DNA of 64,000 nucleotides from an uncultured virus (IMG/VR IMGVR_UViG_3300032233_001072). Taxonomy: Duplodnaviria; Heunggongvirae; Uroviricota; Caudoviricetes. The stretch lies in the IMG/VR virus record IMGVR_UViG_3300032233_001072, positions 30,949-94,948 of that record, one strand, 5' to 3'. Both the position numbers and the translations under genes were made by a program. Positions 29,703-63,723 of the stretch are shown piece by piece (position 1 is the first letter of the stretch; each line of letters begins with the position of its first letter). Under the pieces are notes generated by a model, which made no database searches, was not told the origin of the DNA, and saw only the letters and a program-made list of their open reading frames with translations.

Positions 29703-31268
29703 TTAACGACTGAAAAATGGATTGTTTGCTACTTGCACCGTTGGAAGTGTTTCGTAGATAGTCATGGCACATGCGATAGCAAGAGAATCGGGGTAGTCGT
29801 CAAAGGCTCCCTTTTCATTTGGGGCTTCTGCCAACATAAAAGGACCTTTATAAACCTTCTCAAGGTCTCCCATTTGTTGCGTAAACCGTTTCCAAGATTT
29901 AACTCTCTTAGCCTTAGAGTGGGCTGGAATGACTAATTGGTCTCTCTGAATCAATTCGGTAAGATGTACCCAACGCTCGTGCTGTGCCCGAGAATCAGAA
30001 GAAACCCCGATGACTTCAATGTTAGGGAGAAGTAATTGGAGACGTTCCGCCACAGCCCCACCAACACCTTGGGAGTCAACTCCAATGCGTAGGCAGTCGT
30101 AGTTTCTCAAGAAGTCAATGATCTGAAAGTATTGAGATTCCCATTCCTCGTTGTTAATTTCCAACCAGTTAAGAATGCGGTGTTCATAGAAACCAAATGG
30201 ATCTGGATGATCCCAGTCAACCCACAGAACAGTAACCACCGTGGAGTCAGTAGATCGGGCAACGTCAATACCGACTACAACAGGGGTGCGCCACCAACTT
30301 CTTACGAGTGGCATCTGTATGTCAAATAAACGCTCTAAGCGTTCTTCGGTTACAAACATTCCTCGTTCCAACATGAACCTGTTGCAGTAGGACATTTGGA
30401 ATTCTTCGGAGTCTTCACCAATGCGTAGTTTTTCTTTAGAAATAAACTTGGCATAGTTAGGGTTGTATTTAGCCGCAACCCTCCAGTCATACTCAAAATG
30501 GCATTGGCGTACTTTGCGTCCACCGTTTACTTCACGCCTTTTGTTGTACTGGATCATTTTATAGAAGTAGGACTTCTGGCGGTTAGCCGTACCTGTGAGG
30601 CAGATAGAACCGTTGTTAAACGCCAACATCGGTTTAATTGACTTGGTAACCATAAACTCGTCTGCTTCTTGAGCCTCGTCAATAAGGACGAAGTGATAAG
30701 TCTTAGATTCAATCTTTGCCTTGGGGTTACAAGTCTGCATACGGCAAAGTGATCCAGAATTCTTTAGGGTGATAATTCGCCCTTTTCCTCGTGATCCACC
30801 AGACATCGCCTTGTCGTCAATCTCAGGGTCAAGCAAAAAGTCCATTGCATGGTCGCTAGTTAACTTGCTTACGATACGTCCAAACACAGTGTCTGCTTGG
30901 TCTTCTACGGGAGCAAAAACGCCAACCCAGAATCCTTTTTCAAATTTACCAAGCCACGTTGGATAGACCTTGGCAAGTTTGGGAAGGAGCACCATCATGG
31001 CAGAAAGCACGTTAGACAGTACTTCCGATTTACCTGACTGGCGTGTAGCAATCACTGTCATTTCATCGCCGTCACCAAGAATCACTGATTCAATTAAACG
31101 GTACGCAATAGGTAACTGGTAAGGGAAGAATTTAGTGTCAGTAAAGGCTTCGGTGAATATGACTCCCCGTTTTACTAACTCATCTAAAAACTCTGCCGAC
31201 GTATCGTCAAGTTCTGTGAATTCGTCTTCGGGGATTAGGTTTTCTTCTAGTTCTTCATCTGTAAGCAC
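29703..31268 (-). CDS. terL: Terminase large subunit
   Basis: Walker A TRQSGKS, Walker B LIDEAQ, GIDVAR and DDYPDS nuclease motifs; start reassigned to GTG 6 nt after TATGAT. Confidence 0.93.
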   Translation of the reverse strand: MLTDEELEENLIPEDEFTELDDTSAEFLDELVKRGVIFTEAFTDTKFFPYQLPIAYRLIESVILGDGDEMTVIATRQSGKSEVLSNVLSAMMVLLPKLAKVYPTWLGKFEKGFWVGVFAPVEDQADTVFGRIVSKLTSDHAMDFLLDPEIDDKAMSGGSRGKGRIITLKNSGSLCRMQTCNPKAKIESKTYHFVLIDEAQEADEFMVTKSIKPMLAFNNGSICLTGTANRQKSYFYKMIQYNKRREVNGGRKVRQCHFEYDWRVAAKYNPNYAKFISKEKLRIGEDSEEFQMSYCNRFMLERGMFVTEERLERLFDIQMPLVRSWWRTPVVVGIDVARSTDSTVVTVLWVDWDHPDPFGFYEHRILNWLEINNEEWESQYFQIIDFLRNYDCLRIGVDSQGVGGAVAERLQLLLPNIEVIGVSSDSRAQHERWVHLTELIQRDQLVIPAHSKAKRVKSWKRFTQQMGDLEKVYKGPFMLAEAPNEKGAFDDYPDSLAIACAMTIYETLPTVQVANNPFFSR

Positions 31269-59595: not shown

Positions 59596-59690
59596 AGGGT
59601 GCCATCACTTCGGTGATGGTGCCCTCAGAGCACTCAGAGCAAGTATCTGAATGTTGTGAGGGCAAAAGCCCTTTTAAAGCCTGAGGAGGC
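59596..59690 (+). promoter_or_regulatory. Structured operon leader (UUCG hairpin, overlapping helices, SD hairpin)
   Basis: AGGGTGCCATCAC-TTCG-GTGATGGTGCCCT; GCCCTCA/TGAGGGC; AGGGC-AAAA-GCCCT; GCCT-GAGG-AGGC. Confidence 0.6.
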
Positions 59691-59693
59691 ATC

Positions 59694-59921
59694 ATGAACA
59701 ACGATCCAAAATTCGTGTACATCATCACATGGTCAGATGGTCTTCAAGAGACAGTGCGCAAAAGCCATCAAGGCTTCCACTGGGGTCTTGGCTCCATCTC
59801 CTCTCATGTGGATGGCATGCGAATGAGTGTTGAAGGTTTGGGCGGGAGCATTTCCCGTCAAAAGAATCCATCTTGGGTCAACCCGAAGACCCCAGCGAAT
59901 CCTTTCGCCAAGTTCTTCTAA
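59694..59921 (+). CDS. Ribozyme-array ORF 1, hypothetical
   Basis: GAGGAGG SD. Confidence 0.8.
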   Translation: MNNDPKFVYIITWSDGLQETVRKSHQGFHWGLGSISSHVDGMRMSVEGLGGSISRQKNPSWVNPKTPANPFAKFF

Positions 59922-59926
59922 CCAAA

Positions 59927-59980
59927 ATGACGAAACGCCCGTGAGGGCGTCTACGGCTTGTAGTCGTACTGATGAGTCAT
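59927..59980 (+). ncRNA. Hammerhead ribozyme type II, copy 1 (predicted cut after 59951)
   Basis: ATGAC GAA ACGCCC-GTGA-GGGCGT C TACGGC-TTGTA-GTCGTA CTGATGA GTCAT. Confidence 0.93.
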
Positions 59981-60010
59981 CAGCAAAACGCCTGAGGAGG
60001 CACGAAAATC

Positions 60011-60529
60011 ATGAGTTACCGAGCAGACTGGGGCAACACCCCCGCATTCAAGGCACACGTCGCAGAACACGGCAATGGTGATTCATTCACCAATGATCAG
60101 GGTTATCCGAAAGAGCCTGTGAATTCCATCATGTGGCAGATGATCAGCATCAGCATGTCGTCAATCACCGAGAGCAACATTTCGGAGGTTTACGCACGGC
60201 TGAAGTTGGTTGAGAAAACCTTCAAATGTGGTGTGTGGGGTCAGCGATACATCGGCACCGATGGTGAGTATTCACATTCCCGCAACTGGGAGGATTACAC
60301 ACTCACCCCCGAGCACGTTCAGCAAGTCATGCACTTGTCGGTCAACATCTCCACCAAGTCACGCACTGCGTGGATCAAGGATGTTGTGTCGCTGATTCAG
60401 CGTGACACGTACATGGAGGAGGCACGGGAGATGTTCTTCGGGCACACACTGACCCCGAACAAGATCATCAATCTTGAGGTAAACGGGTGGAAGAAGTATT
60501 ACGAAGAGCGCATCAGCGTCAACGCATAA
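60011..60529 (+). CDS. Ribozyme-array ORF 2, hypothetical
   Basis: SD hairpin 59990-60001. Confidence 0.85.
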   Translation: MSYRADWGNTPAFKAHVAEHGNGDSFTNDQGYPKEPVNSIMWQMISISMSSITESNISEVYARLKLVEKTFKCGVWGQRYIGTDGEYSHSRNWEDYTLTPEHVQQVMHLSVNISTKSRTAWIKDVVSLIQRDTYMEEAREMFFGHTLTPNKIINLEVNGWKKYYEERISVNA

Positions 60530-60534
60530 CCCAA

Positions 60535-60588
60535 ACGACGAAACGCCCGTGAGGGCGTCTACGGATTACATCCGTACTGACGAGTCGT
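60535..60588 (+). ncRNA. Hammerhead ribozyme type II, copy 2 (cut after 60559)
   Basis: ACGAC GAA ACGCCC-GTGA-GGGCGT C TACGGA-TTACA-TCCGTA CTGACGA GTCGT. Confidence 0.93.
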
Positions 60589-60614
60589 CAGCGATGCCTG
60601 AGGAGGCAAAGATC

Positions 60615-61085
60615 ATGGGAATTTATTCATACGGAATCAGCGGTTCACGCATTCTTGACGAAATCGGTGTGGTGTCAACCATCCGCTTTCGCTTCAGCCG
60701 TAGTCACATGGATCGCCAGCGTGTTGCTCACCAAGAAAAATTGGATGAGCAGTACGAGGCACGTTGGGCTGGGAAGAGTTTTTCCCGACTCATAGCGTCG
60801 GGCGACCAGTTGCGGGTGTGGGCGGGCACAGACAGCCCGATCTGCGATGACTTTGAGCCACGTTCATCTTTTCCGCTCACTTGGCACTCTTTTGGAAAAC
60901 TGAGTGTTGATGAGCAGATGTCGTTGCCAATGTGGGTGCTGGGCGCCATGAGCGCAGTAGAGGAGGGCGAATTGCCTTTCGTGCCGACTACCAAGAAGGC
61001 GTACTACGAGATGGTGGACAAAGCATGCACAAAGCGTCTAATTGATGCAGGTTGGCTGAATGCACAGCCGTTGTTAACTAAATGA
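60615..61085 (+). CDS. Ribozyme-array ORF 3, hypothetical
   Basis: Start reassigned to MGIYSY after SD hairpin. Confidence 0.8.
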   Translation: MGIYSYGISGSRILDEIGVVSTIRFRFSRSHMDRQRVAHQEKLDEQYEARWAGKSFSRLIASGDQLRVWAGTDSPICDDFEPRSSFPLTWHSFGKLSVDEQMSLPMWVLGAMSAVEEGELPFVPTTKKAYYEMVDKACTKRLIDAGWLNAQPLLTK

Positions 61086-61135
61086 CGAAACACCCTTCGG
61101 GGTGTCTACGGCTTTCAGCCGTACTGACGAGTCAT
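61082..61135 (+). ncRNA. Hammerhead ribozyme type II, copy 3 (cut after 61106)
   Basis: ATGAC GAA ACACCC-TTCG-GGGTGT C TACGGC-TTTCA-GCCGTA CTGACGA GTCAT. Confidence 0.93.
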
Positions 61136-61167
61136 CAGTTATTACTCATTAGACCTGAGGAGGTCAT

Positions 61168-61458
61168 ATGTCATCATCAACCAACGTCCATTCCGTGACG
61201 AAGATTAAACCCGTGATCAATCACTTTGAAACTGGGGGCAAACATTCATTCACAACAATGAATTTAGAAGTCTTCGGCAAGGTGTGGATCAAAGGTGTTC
61301 TGCACGAAAACGTGGAAATCGCAACGCTTGAGTTTTTCTTTGACACTCAAGAAGAGTTCCACGAGGCTGTAGAGCCTCTTTGCCACATGCTCGTCGGGCG
61401 CCTCATGCCCAACATGAGCAAGCGTATAGAAACCAAGTCATTGACAGAACACATCTAA
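61168..61458 (+). CDS. Ribozyme-array ORF 4, hypothetical
   Basis: SD hairpin 61152-61165. Confidence 0.8.
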   Translation: MSSSTNVHSVTKIKPVINHFETGGKHSFTTMNLEVFGKVWIKGVLHENVEIATLEFFFDTQEEFHEAVEPLCHMLVGRLMPNMSKRIETKSLTEHI

Positions 61459-61461
61459 TAA

Positions 61462-61513
61462 ACGACGAAACGCCTTCGGGCGTCCATGGTTCAGAACCAT
61501 GCTGACGAGTCGT
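61462..61513 (+). ncRNA. Hammerhead ribozyme type II, copy 4 (cut after 61484)
   Basis: ACGAC GAA ACGCC-TTCG-GGCGT C CATGGT-TCAGA-ACCATG CTGACGA GTCGT. Confidence 0.93.
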
Positions 61514-61541
61514 CAGAATTATCGCCTGAGGAGGCAACATC

Positions 61542-61868
61542 ATGAATCAATTCCTTTGTGGAACCCCCACCGAGACCAACGAAGTCGCACCACTCACATG
61601 GGCAATGGAGACCATTGACTATCGCTTGCGTGGCATGGCACAACAGATTGAGCAACAACTTGCGGAAATTCAAGAGCATGCTCAACGGTTGCCAAGCGAA
61701 TTCGGATTCGGAGTCATCACTGGACGAGAGGCACACAGCACTGGGTATCAAGCCCAGCGTTCACTGGAGTCACTCGGGGACAAAGTACGGCGGGTCGCCA
61801 TGCTCAACGAACAGCACCTTGCGCTGGTCTTGTTGCGACGTGACCTTGCGTACTCGCTCAACTCATAA
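61542..61868 (+). CDS. Ribozyme-array ORF 5, helical hypothetical
   Basis: SD hairpin 61524-61535. Confidence 0.8.
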   Translation: MNQFLCGTPTETNEVAPLTWAMETIDYRLRGMAQQIEQQLAEIQEHAQRLPSEFGFGVITGREAHSTGYQAQRSLESLGDKVRRVAMLNEQHLALVLLRRDLAYSLNS

Positions 61869-61872
61869 CCAA

Positions 61873-61926
61873 ACGACGAAACACCCTTCGGGGTGTCCAT
61901 GGCTGAAAGCCATGCTGACGAGTCGT
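61873..61926 (+). ncRNA. Hammerhead ribozyme type II, copy 5 (cut after 61897)
   Basis: ACGAC GAA ACACCC-TTCG-GGGTGT C CATGGC-TGAAA-GCCATG CTGACGA GTCGT. Confidence 0.93.
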
Positions 61927-61955
61927 CAGAGATAGACCTGAGGAGGTCATTAATC

Positions 61956-62195
61956 ATGAAGTACAACATTGAATTCGTGTTCACAGGCACACGCCACGAC
62001 GGCACTTTTTATCTTGCCAATACTGGAGACACTTTCGTGAGAGTCTCCACTACACCTCATCAAGATATTGCTAAAAGGTTCGCCAGTTTTGGCGACGCTC
62101 TTGCTTTTGCAAGACGGCATGGCACCGATGGCGCAAAGTACAACCCGTTTAGTCATGGCACATGGACAGTCGTCCCAGCACTTGACACATTTTAA
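61956..62195 (+). CDS. Ribozyme-array ORF 6 (paralog of ORF 8 N-terminus)
   Basis: Start reassigned to MKYNIEF. Confidence 0.8.
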   Translation: MKYNIEFVFTGTRHDGTFYLANTGDTFVRVSTTPHQDIAKRFASFGDALAFARRHGTDGAKYNPFSHGTWTVVPALDTF

Positions 62196-62199
62196 TTAA

Positions 62200-62253
62200 A
62201 TGACGAAACACCCCTCGGGGTGTCCATGGCTTGGAGCCATGCTGATGAGTCAT
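62200..62253 (+). ncRNA. Hammerhead ribozyme type II, copy 6 (cut after 62224)
   Basis: ATGAC GAA ACACCC-CTCG-GGGTGT C CATGGC-TTGGA-GCCATG CTGATGA GTCAT. Confidence 0.93.
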
Positions 62254-62279
62254 CAGAGATGCCTGAGGAGGCAACAATC

Positions 62280-62618
62280 ATGGAATTAATCACAATCACA
62301 AAAGTCGCTCCAGCAACCCCAAAAGTTGGTGATGGTGCATCTCTTATCTTTTGGTCTGACCGTCATGCATGCACTGTCATAGCAGTCAGCCCCAGTGGCA
62401 AGAAGATCACCGTCCAGCAGGACAAAGCAACTCGGGTGGATGGCAACGGCATGTCTGACATGCAGAACTATTCCTTTGAGTGCAATCCGAACGGCGCCAT
62501 CTACCAATTCAGCCTTCGCAAGAATGGTGAGTGGTGCATGGTGGGCGATTCCTCCCGAGGGGGAGGCGTCGTCTGCTCCCTTCACGGGCGCTACGAGTAC
62601 TACGACTTTTCGTTCTAA
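62280..62618 (+). CDS. Ribozyme-array ORF 7, phage hypothetical
   Basis: PKVGDGA....WSDRHACTV...SPSGK...FSLRKNG.W...YYDFSF; start reassigned to MELITI. Confidence 0.85.
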   Translation: MELITITKVAPATPKVGDGASLIFWSDRHACTVIAVSPSGKKITVQQDKATRVDGNGMSDMQNYSFECNPNGAIYQFSLRKNGEWCMVGDSSRGGGVVCSLHGRYEYYDFSF

Positions 62619-62670
62619 ATGACGAAACGCCTTCGGGCGTCTGCGATTCATAATCGCACTGATGAGTCAT
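62619..62670 (+). ncRNA. Hammerhead ribozyme type II, copy 7 (cut after 62641)
   Basis: ATGAC GAA ACGCC-TTCG-GGCGT C TGCGAT-TCATA-ATCGCA CTGATGA GTCAT. Confidence 0.93.
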
Positions 62671-62698
62671 CAGCAAGCGACCTGAGGAGGTCAAAATC

Positions 62699-63073
62699 AT
62701 GAAGTACAACATTCAAATTACTCATGCGAACTCACGCATACCGAAGTACCTGAAAGCGCACATGATGCGTGGGGGCAAAATTGTCACCACTCGTTGGCAA
62801 CAAAGCGCTCGTGGCTTCAAGTCGTGGGAAGAGGCACAAGAGTTCATAGACAATGTCGGCACGTACTTTCGTGGTACGTGGACGGTCGTGGAATTTACTC
62901 TTGTCAACCAATTGAGTTACAGAGAGTTCAAAGTGGAAACTGACGGGACAATCGTCTGTTTTGATTGCGAGGAGAACTTCCCCAAGGAAGCCATCTTCGG
63001 TGATCCACGCTGGAGTGACCCACGTTGTGGCGACTGCTACGACGCCCACAAGTATGAAAGGAGCGCACAATAG
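62699..63073 (+). CDS. Ribozyme-array ORF 8 with C-terminal Zn finger
   Basis: MKYNIQI...GTWTVV; CFDC...CGDC. Confidence 0.85.
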   Translation: MKYNIQITHANSRIPKYLKAHMMRGGKIVTTRWQQSARGFKSWEEAQEFIDNVGTYFRGTWTVVEFTLVNQLSYREFKVETDGTIVCFDCEENFPKEAIFGDPRWSDPRCGDCYDAHKYERSAQ

Positions 63074-63087
63074 GTTCACGCCTAACA

Positions 63088-63141
63088 ACGACGAAACGCC
63101 CCAAGGGGCGTCCATGACTCATAGTCATGCTGACGAGTCGT
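63088..63141 (+). ncRNA. Hammerhead ribozyme type II, copy 8 (cut after 63112)
   Basis: ACGAC GAA ACGCCC-CAAG-GGGCGT C CATGAC-TCATA-GTCATG CTGACGA GTCGT. Confidence 0.93.
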
Positions 63142-63172
63142 CAGTTAACAAGACCTGAGGAGGTCATTAATC

Positions 63173-63349
63173 ATGAAAGATATAGCAGAAATCGTCATCA
63201 AGTTGACTGCACGTAATGCCGAACTCCTTCGTGAGTTTGAGCAGAACATGCCCGTAGGTGAAGCCCGAGCACACTTGTTCGGGAGCGTCAACGGCATCAA
63301 CACAGCCCTTGACATCATTGAAGAAATCATGGCAAGGGAGAACGTGTGA
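63173..63349 (+). CDS. Ribozyme-array ORF 9 (58 aa)
   Basis: Hand translation MKDIAEIVIKLTARNAELLREF...IMARENV; SD hairpin 63152-63165. Confidence 0.8.
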   Translation: MKDIAEIVIKLTARNAELLREFEQNMPVGEARAHLFGSVNGINTALDIIEEIMARENV

Positions 63350-63612
63350 TGCAGATTTATACAACAACTGAGTTGCGTTACATTGCCTTCACAGCGTTCA
63401 AGACTGACTTGTTCATTGTCCATAACCCCAAAGACCTTCCCATAAGTTTCTTGGGCTGGACATTGGACAACATCTACGACTGGCTCAACGAAAATGGTTA
63501 CTGGGAGTCGGGTGAGTTAGAAATCACTGATGACCAATTAGTGTTCATTGAAGTCAATCAACTTGATGGCATGCAGGACGAAGTAGTCGTCGCTGTAGAA
63601 ATCAAAATGTAG
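63349..63612 (+). CDS. Acidic hypothetical protein
   Basis: TGATG-coupled to ORF 9. Confidence 0.75.
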   Translation: MQIYTTTELRYIAFTAFKTDLFIVHNPKDLPISFLGWTLDNIYDWLNENGYWESGELEITDDQLVFIEVNQLDGMQDEVVVAVEIKM

Positions 63613-63723
63613 GCACATCACGGGGTGTCCCCCCGCCCCGTGGTGTCCTCAAAGGTCATCAGCAGGTTGCTGGTGGCTTTTGAGGGCATACAATTGCCCG
63701 TTACACCTAGACCTGAGGAGGTC
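63613..63723 (+). promoter_or_regulatory. Second structured leader (same architecture as 59596-59690)
   Basis: ACATCACGGGG/CCCCGTGGTGT; TGTCCTCAAAGGTCATCAGCA/TGCTGGTGGCTTTTGAGGGCA; GGGCA/TGCCC; GACCT-GAGG-AGGTC. Confidence 0.6.

Follow-up and report, generated by a model that had tools for sequence, protein, structure and literature searches.

Hammerhead modules in an operon of small phage genes

The DNA analysed here, 64,000 nucleotides of an uncultured member of the Caudoviricetes (IMG/VR virus record IMGVR_UViG_3300032233_001072, positions 30,949 to 94,948; hereafter the window), forms the last 64 kb of a 94,948-bp record that CheckV rates as complete. Positions 59.6-64 kb of the window are the start of a + strand operon that continues into the beginning of the record. 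In this operon the spacers of 80-99 nt that separate consecutive small open reading frames (ORFs) are filled by eight predicted type II hammerhead ribozymes, and they contain a ribozyme with a ribosome binding site (RBS) and nothing else (Table 1).

Using a regular expression that combines the hammerhead core with the Shine-Dalgarno (SD) motif, we found exactly eight modules, all on the + strand, and the distances from cut to start codon given in the initial annotation were all reproduced exactly. The modules share the design A[U/C]GAC-GAAAC-hairpin-GUC, cut, hairpin-CUGA[U/C]GA-GUC[A/G]U-CAG, linker, N-CCUGAGGAGG-N, spacer and AUG. The palindrome CTGAYGAGTCRTCAG occurs eight times against 0.22 occurrences expected by chance, and the SD motif CCTGAGGAGG ten times in the window against 0.03 expected. 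RNAfold of the 3' products placed the stem I hairpin from nucleotide 1 and the palindrome hairpin at nucleotides 18-32, followed by a 3-7 nt linker, the SD hairpin, 8-12 free nucleotides and the AUG. The order of parts described as invariable thus stood in seven of the eight modules and failed in HH3, where the palindrome contains a C-A mismatch; the start context described as usual, ATCATG, was likewise present in seven. The eight modules are diverged paralogues with a mean column identity of 75%, so that the regularity of their leaders, although far beyond chance, is a regularity among related copies.

The assignment to consensus type II hammerheads is borne out by the core, the cleavage-site nucleotides, three covarying helices and the topology. 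The core CUGAYGA (CTGAYGA in DNA) and GAAA are invariant in all eight copies, as are the A15.1-U16.1 pair and C17 (GAAAC...GTC). All 17 helix pairs are formed in every copy (136 of 136 cells), seven of them with compensatory double changes, while sliding the partner columns as a control gave 16-47% pairing. The stem II strands lie 45 nt apart and enclose both hairpins, leaving stems I and III loop-closed and stem II open. No further hammerheads were found elsewhere in the genome. Self-cleavage of the array hammerheads is very likely. Cleavage of hammerhead clusters from phages has been observed both in vitro and in vivo (PMC3088659), and in Desulfovibrio vulgaris it has been observed for three hammerheads of type II (PMC8782182).

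Table 1. Positions in the window of the hammerhead modules, of SD hairpins without a hammerhead and of the genes; leaders run from the predicted cut to the ATG.
Feature	Position	Strand	First nucleotide past cut	Core and anti-core palindrome	SD hairpin	Leader (nt)	ATG	RF02276 score (bits)	Remarks
HH1 module	59927..60010	+	59952	59969-59983	59990-60001	59	60011	36.4	Leader of g2; stem II 5' strand 59927-59931
HH2 module	60535..60614	+	60560	60577-60591	60596-60607	55	60615	32.7	Leader of g3
HH3 module	61082..61167	+	61107	61124-61138	61153-61164	61	61168	28.2	Leader of g4; palindrome imperfect (C7 opposite A)
HH4 module	61462..61541	+	61485	61502-61516	61524-61535	57	61542		Leader of g5
HH5 module	61873..61955	+	61898	61915-61929	61936-61947	58	61956		Leader of g6
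HH6 module	62200..62279	+	62225	62242-62256	62261-62272	55	62280	35.1	Leader of g7
HH7 module	62619..62698	+	62642	62659-62673	62680-62691	57	62699	25.8	Leader of g8; adjoins TAA stop of g7
HH8 module	63088..63172	+	63113	63130-63144	63153-63164	60	63173	28.4	Leader of g9
SD mini-hairpin without hammerhead	59679..59690	+							Leader of g1
SD mini-hairpin without hammerhead	63711..63722	+							Leader of helicase gene (start 63730)
Ten small ORFs served by modules	59694..63612	+							All of unknown function
g1	59694-59921	+
g2	60011-60529	+
g3	60615-61085	+
g4	61168-61458	+
g5	61542-61868	+
g6	61956-62195	+
g7	62280-62618	+
g8	62699-63073	+
g9	63173-63349	+
g10	63349-63612	+

No Pfam families were detected among the cassette proteins, g7 alone matched PHROGs (two, both of unknown function), and no PDB relatives were found for g2, g3 and g7, the three proteins searched. 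The DNA runs that hold the window sequence or close relatives are mostly freshwater metagenomes, and megablast of the array region against GenBank phages gave no match. The actinobacterial host assumed in the initial annotation is not established, the helicase being only ~33% identical to proteins of phages of Arthrobacter, Thermus and others. Genes g9 and g10 overlap as TGATG (63347-63351) with no ribozyme between them, and the last array unit is thus a translationally coupled two-gene block.

Packing, hairpins and cassette exchange

The ribozymes, measured from the stem II strand, start -4 to +14 nt from the upstream stop codon, and in HH3 the UGA stop of g3 (61083-61085) lies within the stem II 5' strand. 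The predicted cut falls 21-39 nt 3' of the upstream stop, and the conserved core and palindrome end 23-29 nt ahead of the next AUG. Of the 55-61 nt of each leader, 44 are taken up by fixed parts, namely the 17-nt stem I, the 15-nt palindrome and the 12-nt SD hairpin. The two variable spacers (4-14 and 3-9 nt) show no mutual compensation and the orthologous leader in one relative measures 64 nt; selection on total leader length was rejected on these grounds, and we conclude that the parts are constrained and not the total length.

For comparison, two pattern-defined sets of type II hammerheads were drawn from IMG/VR (~270 ribozymes after removal of near-duplicates). In the class with a GAC/GUC stem II the median distance from cut to start is 54 nt (interquartile range (IQR) 49-58, n=127; 77% within 40-59), the gap between stop and ribozyme 2 nt (IQR 0-4, n=132), the distance from the ribozyme 3' end to the start 25.5 nt (IQR 21-31) and the whole spacer 80 nt. 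In the GGC/GCC class the corresponding medians are 57 nt (IQR 52-61, n=105) from cut to start, 3 nt for the gap and 27 nt from the ribozyme 3' end to the start. Since the cut-to-start medians of these other phage hammerheads are 54-57 nt, the leaders of the window lie within the normal range. The proposal that each cut creates a standardised leader must therefore be narrowed: if the RNAs are cleaved as predicted, all leaders would have the same architecture and begin with a base-paired 5'-OH nucleotide, but the standard length is the norm in the comparison sets and follows from type II geometry and minimal spacers. As judged from these sequences, the uniform leader is a general rule of phage type II hammerheads and not a special device. 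Ungapped identity of the RBS region in other arrays was 0.43 within and 0.35 between arrays, a measure too crude to interpret.

The SD hairpin is found at 14 sites in the genome, all in the array operon, of which ten lie at the end of the record and four at its beginning. The hairpin is closed by a covarying pair (G-C or A-U), has a predicted energy of -5.9 to -6.3 kcal/mol and pairs three of the five GGAGG bases. The idea that it forms a composite with the ribozyme, as in a synthetic insulator, does not hold, because six of the 14 sites (five gene leaders and one inside the helicase gene) are free of hammerheads and because the hairpin sequesters half of the SD sequence.

A second structured intergenic family lies 5' of SD hairpins without hammerhead, at 59596-59672 and 63613-63700 of the window and again at the start of the record (L138:530-650, 1385-1500 and 2050-2160). 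Its members combine three hairpins, a variable one, a long one closed by CUCAGRG/CUCUGAG and a short one of the form GGGCA..UGCCC; for five copies RNAalifold gave 33 pairs, 14 of them with compensatory changes, and the family had no match in Rfam. Other ribozyme classes are known as neighbours of hammerheads, and this family could be a further ribozyme class or a processing site of the host RNase III type.

The palindrome of the modules is a hairpin formed by the catalytic core CUGAYGA and the UCRUCAG that comes after it. Position 7 of the core, U or C in the window, is paired with a tail base in seven of the eight copies; the same tail base belongs to stem II, where it is paired in all eight, so that the window alone cannot separate the two pairings. 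In other phages, where the tail lies outside stem II, a NUCAG tail 3' of stem II was present in 29/137 and 23/134 ribozymes of the two comparison sets against 3.2 and 3.9 in shuffles, which amounts to ~20% of type II hammerheads from phages. In 47 of these 52 tails N matches core position 7 (A-U 29, G-C 18; Fisher p = 2.9e-9), and both states of position 7 are often present in one array. A pairing of the tail with the upstream flank that extends stem II was considered as the cause of this covariation and rejected, as it fits few loci. Pairing of C3-N7 is incompatible with catalysis, and the anti-core hairpin is thus an inactive conformer; as the products are held by the 5-bp stem II alone, we read it as a post-cleavage lock. 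We found no mention of such a hairpin in the searchable text of Perreault et al. (PMC3088659).

Relatives of the locus were found via a protein, via the composite pattern and in public contigs. The exact composite of palindrome and CCTGAGGAGG is confined, outside the window, to one IMG/VR contig and five contigs from metagenomes, all of them closely related to it. The relatives carry the same modules with leaders of 55-64 nt and different genes. The gene order is g2, g3, g4, g5, g6, g7, g8, g9 in the window, gX, g2, g4, g5, g7, short g8, g9 in the relatives L129 and L154, and g2, a new 88-aa ORF, g4, g5 in L156. One locus is therefore seen in three states, with g3 between two hammerheads in the window (g2-HH-g3-HH-g4), the new ORF in the same place in L156 (g2-HH-new 88-aa ORF-HH-g4) and a single hammerhead between g2 and g4 in L129 (g2-HH-g4); the g2-g4 junction is also present in contigs of two runs from two studies, in which 60592 is joined to 61168 via their own SD leader. 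Synteny is lost at ATG+2 (60617, 61958, 62702) and regained at the stop codon or the ribozyme start (61074-61101, 62197), segment identities with the relatives form a mosaic of 80-97%, one module precedes different ORFs, and g4 follows different modules in relatives. The suggestion that genes could be gained or shuffled thus proved right at the DNA level, with gain, loss and replacement of ORFs between modules. Cassette exchange does not, however, establish insulation as its reason.

Several further observations concern the exchanged ORFs. In relatives, g8 consists of the C-terminal 49 aa only, with two CxxC pairs, directly 3' of the HH7 leader, and the window g8 has an additional 75-aa N-terminal part (62703-62922) that relatives lack. 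Unrelated ORFs share their first codons, MKYNI in g6 (61956), g8 (62699) and an L155 variant and MKYKV in the new ORF of L156; beyond the common MKYNI, blastp detected no similarity between g6 and the N-terminus of g8. By sequence, exchange junctions may lie a few codons inside ORFs. The product of g1 is 50% identical to its L129 counterpart in flanks with 93% DNA identity, and g1 looks like an allele replacement at the array head. In L129 (L129:1297-1375) an extra cassette with a 64-aa ORF follows a hammerhead that has the commoner AGGAC/GUCC stem II and an AUCAG tail, so that one array contains both stem II types.

Predicted processing and its alternatives

The + strand of the array has a single weak promoter-like match (9/12), which extends from the HH8 palindrome to the g9 ATG, and a single terminator-like match, located within g8. 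Neither count exceeds shuffle expectation, which fits one polycistronic RNA. We consider it probable, on the strength of the sequence comparisons, that such an RNA is cut by the ribozymes into single-gene mRNAs, that the packing follows a general type II pattern and that the modules also serve as arms for swapping. The operon would be transcribed as a single RNA in which each ribozyme cuts after C17. The upstream piece would end 21-39 nt past its stop codon with the GC-rich stem III hairpin and one nucleotide bearing a 2',3'-cyclic phosphate, and the downstream piece would begin with a 5'-OH on the base-paired first nucleotide of the stem I hairpin. Held solely by the 5-bp stem II, the halves would part, and the spent core CUGAYGA would then pair with UCRUCAG, locking the ribozyme off and forming a second 5' hairpin. 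Each ORF would become a separate mRNA, sealed by hairpins at both ends and provided with a short RBS context common to all; its leader of 55-61 nt would be made up of the ribozyme remnant (32 nt), a short linker, the SD hairpin standard to the operon and a spacer. At the DNA level the repeated modules would act as homology arms for ORF swapping.

Of the hammerhead topologies, type II alone leaves both products with a hairpin, and the predicted 3' ends of the upstream products carry the stem III hairpin (-8 to -14 kcal/mol) with a 1-nt overhang. RNase E and RNase J prefer single-stranded 5'-monophosphate ends, and 3' exonucleases and poly(A) polymerase require a 3'-OH tail. We infer that both ends of the array mRNAs would be poor substrates for 5'-monophosphate-dependent RNases, 3' exonucleases and polyadenylation. 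Stabilisation and insulation by the array ribozymes are plausible.

Several results weigh against this interpretation. Rfam reported no match at the gathering threshold (37 bits for RF02276); with an E-value threshold six of the eight modules matched Hammerhead_II at 25.8-36.4 bits, all below the cut-off, and two were unreported, which we attribute to the longer stem II and a tail unlike the pseudoknot tail of the family and not to the core. Most type II hammerheads owe their speed at low Mg2+ to a tertiary contact, a pseudoknot between loop I and the tail; inspection by eye found none that was consistent across the eight copies, with a 4-bp loop-tail pairing in HH1 only. In the uncut RNA, nearest-neighbour energies, which ignore tertiary energy, favour the anti-core hairpin over stem II by 2.5-4.5 kcal/mol (constrained folds of HH5 left out). 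The predicted cost of opening the RBS is 8.3 +/- 0.7 kcal/mol in cleaved and 9.3 +/- 1.1 kcal/mol in uncleaved RNA, so that the modelled effect of cleavage on RBS accessibility is small, ~1 kcal/mol. The distances in the comparison sets come from ribozymes chosen by pattern, with starts and stops called by a simple and crude rule, and no RNA runs were among those listed as holding the window sequence. Finally, genome compaction alone would give the same lengths and tight packing.

Regarding this contact, loop I is flanked in all eight copies by an invariant U and an invariant A (alignment A1, columns 38 and 42; 59958 and 59962 in HH1, for example), although all other stem I pairs but one covary. 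These two nucleotides may make a tertiary contact that replaces the usual one.

Compaction, in which minimal spacers force a 55-nt ribozyme against the stop codon and the RBS and the regularity has no function of its own, is possible but in our view rather unlikely. With 0-4 nt between stop and ribozyme and 21-31 nt from the ribozyme end to the start, the flanks are minimal on either side, and the two leader spacers do not compensate, as expected under compaction; the choice of type II, the sole topology with a hairpin on both products, and the covarying anti-core tail are nevertheless left unexplained, and compaction addresses the length only and not the ribozymes. It is unlikely, too, that the modules are primarily recombination linkers, ~85-bp dispersed repeats that persist mainly because homologous recombination between them can exchange, delete or insert accessory ORFs in the manner of the PeSL motifs of T4-type phages; RNA cleavage would then be secondary, and the leaders would be uniform only because a single module had been copied. 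Such a role would account for relatives that differ by whole ORFs with breakpoints at module edges, for the mosaic of 80-97% identities and for cassette genes that are all ORFans. Modules at 75% identity, however, keep all helices by compensatory changes together with an intact core, which points to selection at the RNA level; covariation would be needless for a pure DNA repeat. A linker role is compatible with processing into single-gene mRNAs and does not exclude it.

The fold and position of the modules also raise the question of regulation. As the anti-core hairpin is the minimum-free-energy fold of the uncut RNA, it could serve as an off-switch before cleavage, and with the stop codon next to or inside stem II (-4 to +14 nt here; median 2-3 nt in ~260 others) cutting might depend on upstream translation, Mg2+ or a protein and set the ratio of polycistronic to monocistronic RNA, as was raised by Perreault et al. 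for phage hammerheads (PMC3088659). We regard regulated cleavage as quite doubtful, because an aptamer-like extra domain is absent, a terminating ribosome would cover the stem II strand and block rather than promote cleavage, and 80% of phage type II hammerheads lack the tail. Splicing or circularisation, in which half-ribozymes at the ends of an excised unit reassemble and ligate into circular or rearranged RNAs, is highly improbable even though every module has one of two compatible stem II sequences and Perreault et al. mention the possibility, since these authors sought such products and found none (PMC3088659), a hybrid stem II would carry an A-C mismatch in three of the seven units, and the anti-core hairpin should oppose reassembly.

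Single-gene processing by self-cleavage thus remains the reading we prefer. Beyond it we tentatively suggest, while holding it to be less than an even prospect, an undescribed design rule in which the stem II strand adjoins or contains the upstream stop codon, ~25 nt separate the end of the ribozyme from the next start, both products keep hairpins and about one fifth of the ribozymes have an anti-core lock; together with a standard RBS, this would constitute a plug-and-play intercistronic adaptor that yields autonomous, end-sealed mRNAs and lets ORFs be swapped without disturbing their neighbours. Hammerheads number in the thousands in bacteria and phages, and what they do there has yet to be settled (PMC6765202, PMC8782182); the adaptor, if true, would give them a concrete function. 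The comparison of ~270 ribozymes provides testable rules for the position of stop and start, the hairpins on both products and the anti-core lock; if true, these would explain why phages use the type II topology between genes and would supply natural host-independent parts for operon design. As a test bed the locus is unusually clean, for it offers eight consecutive cassettes of one gene each, natural variants that place one module ahead of several ORFs and one ORF behind several modules, and a tail-core pairing that two point changes can break and restore.

Comparison with known systems

The idea that hammerhead processing affects the stability or translation of phage mRNAs had been published before: clusters of hammerheads flanking single phage genes, cleavage of ~2-kb transcripts and the idea of single-gene mRNAs date from 2011 (PMC3088659), and differing stability or translation of the cleaved products is a stated hypothesis (PMC6765202). 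The array resembles the clusters of Perreault et al. (PMC3088659; RF02276) in its core, its type II topology, its placement by variable single genes and the proposed cutting of long phage transcripts into single-gene mRNAs. It differs from the RF02276 family in having a 5-bp stem II against a consensus of ~2 bp, no recognisable pseudoknot between loop I and tail, a tail complementary to the entire core, a run of eight cassettes and scores just below the Rfam cut-off. Packing at the nucleotide level (a stop at stem II, ~55 nt from cut to start) does not appear in the searchable text of that paper (PMC3088659). As far as the searchable literature extends, the rule of packing, the hairpin caps at either end, the anti-core lock and the swaps of ORFs seen in nature appear to be new.

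The early transcript of phage T7 was reportedly shown by Dunn and Studier to be cut by RNase III in intercistronic spacers into single-gene mRNAs. Like the predicted products of the array, the upstream T7 products keep a protective 3' hairpin after intercistronic cutting. The T7 sites, however, require a host enzyme and give 5'-phosphate and 3'-OH ends, whereas the array is predicted to cut itself independently of the host, with 5'-OH and cyclic phosphate ends. As with the PeSL of T4-type phages (PMC2839356, PMC4122927), repeated intergenic motifs bracket variable ORFans and mark exchange breakpoints, and in the array the repeated motif stands at the breakpoints of ORF gain, loss and replacement (60617, 61074-61101, 61958, 62197, 62702). 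PeSL are promoter-terminator DNA motifs, whereas the repeat of the array is a predicted self-cleaving RNA with an RBS.

The analogy with RiboJ is partial. RiboJ is a synthetic insulator made of the sTRSV hammerhead and a 23-nt hairpin, the terminal hairpin being thought to raise stability (PMC6206723). In RiboJ a hammerhead removes the upstream RNA and leaves a structured standard 5' end ahead of the RBS, and the same is predicted for the array. RiboJ is, however, of type III, in which only the downstream product keeps a hairpin, and its extra hairpin lies 5' of the RBS, which it is thought to expose (PMC6206723). In the array modules, by contrast, the hairpin contains the SD sequence, has an opening cost of ~6 kcal/mol and is used by the operon both behind ribozymes and where there is none, and the leader sequences are similar but not identical.

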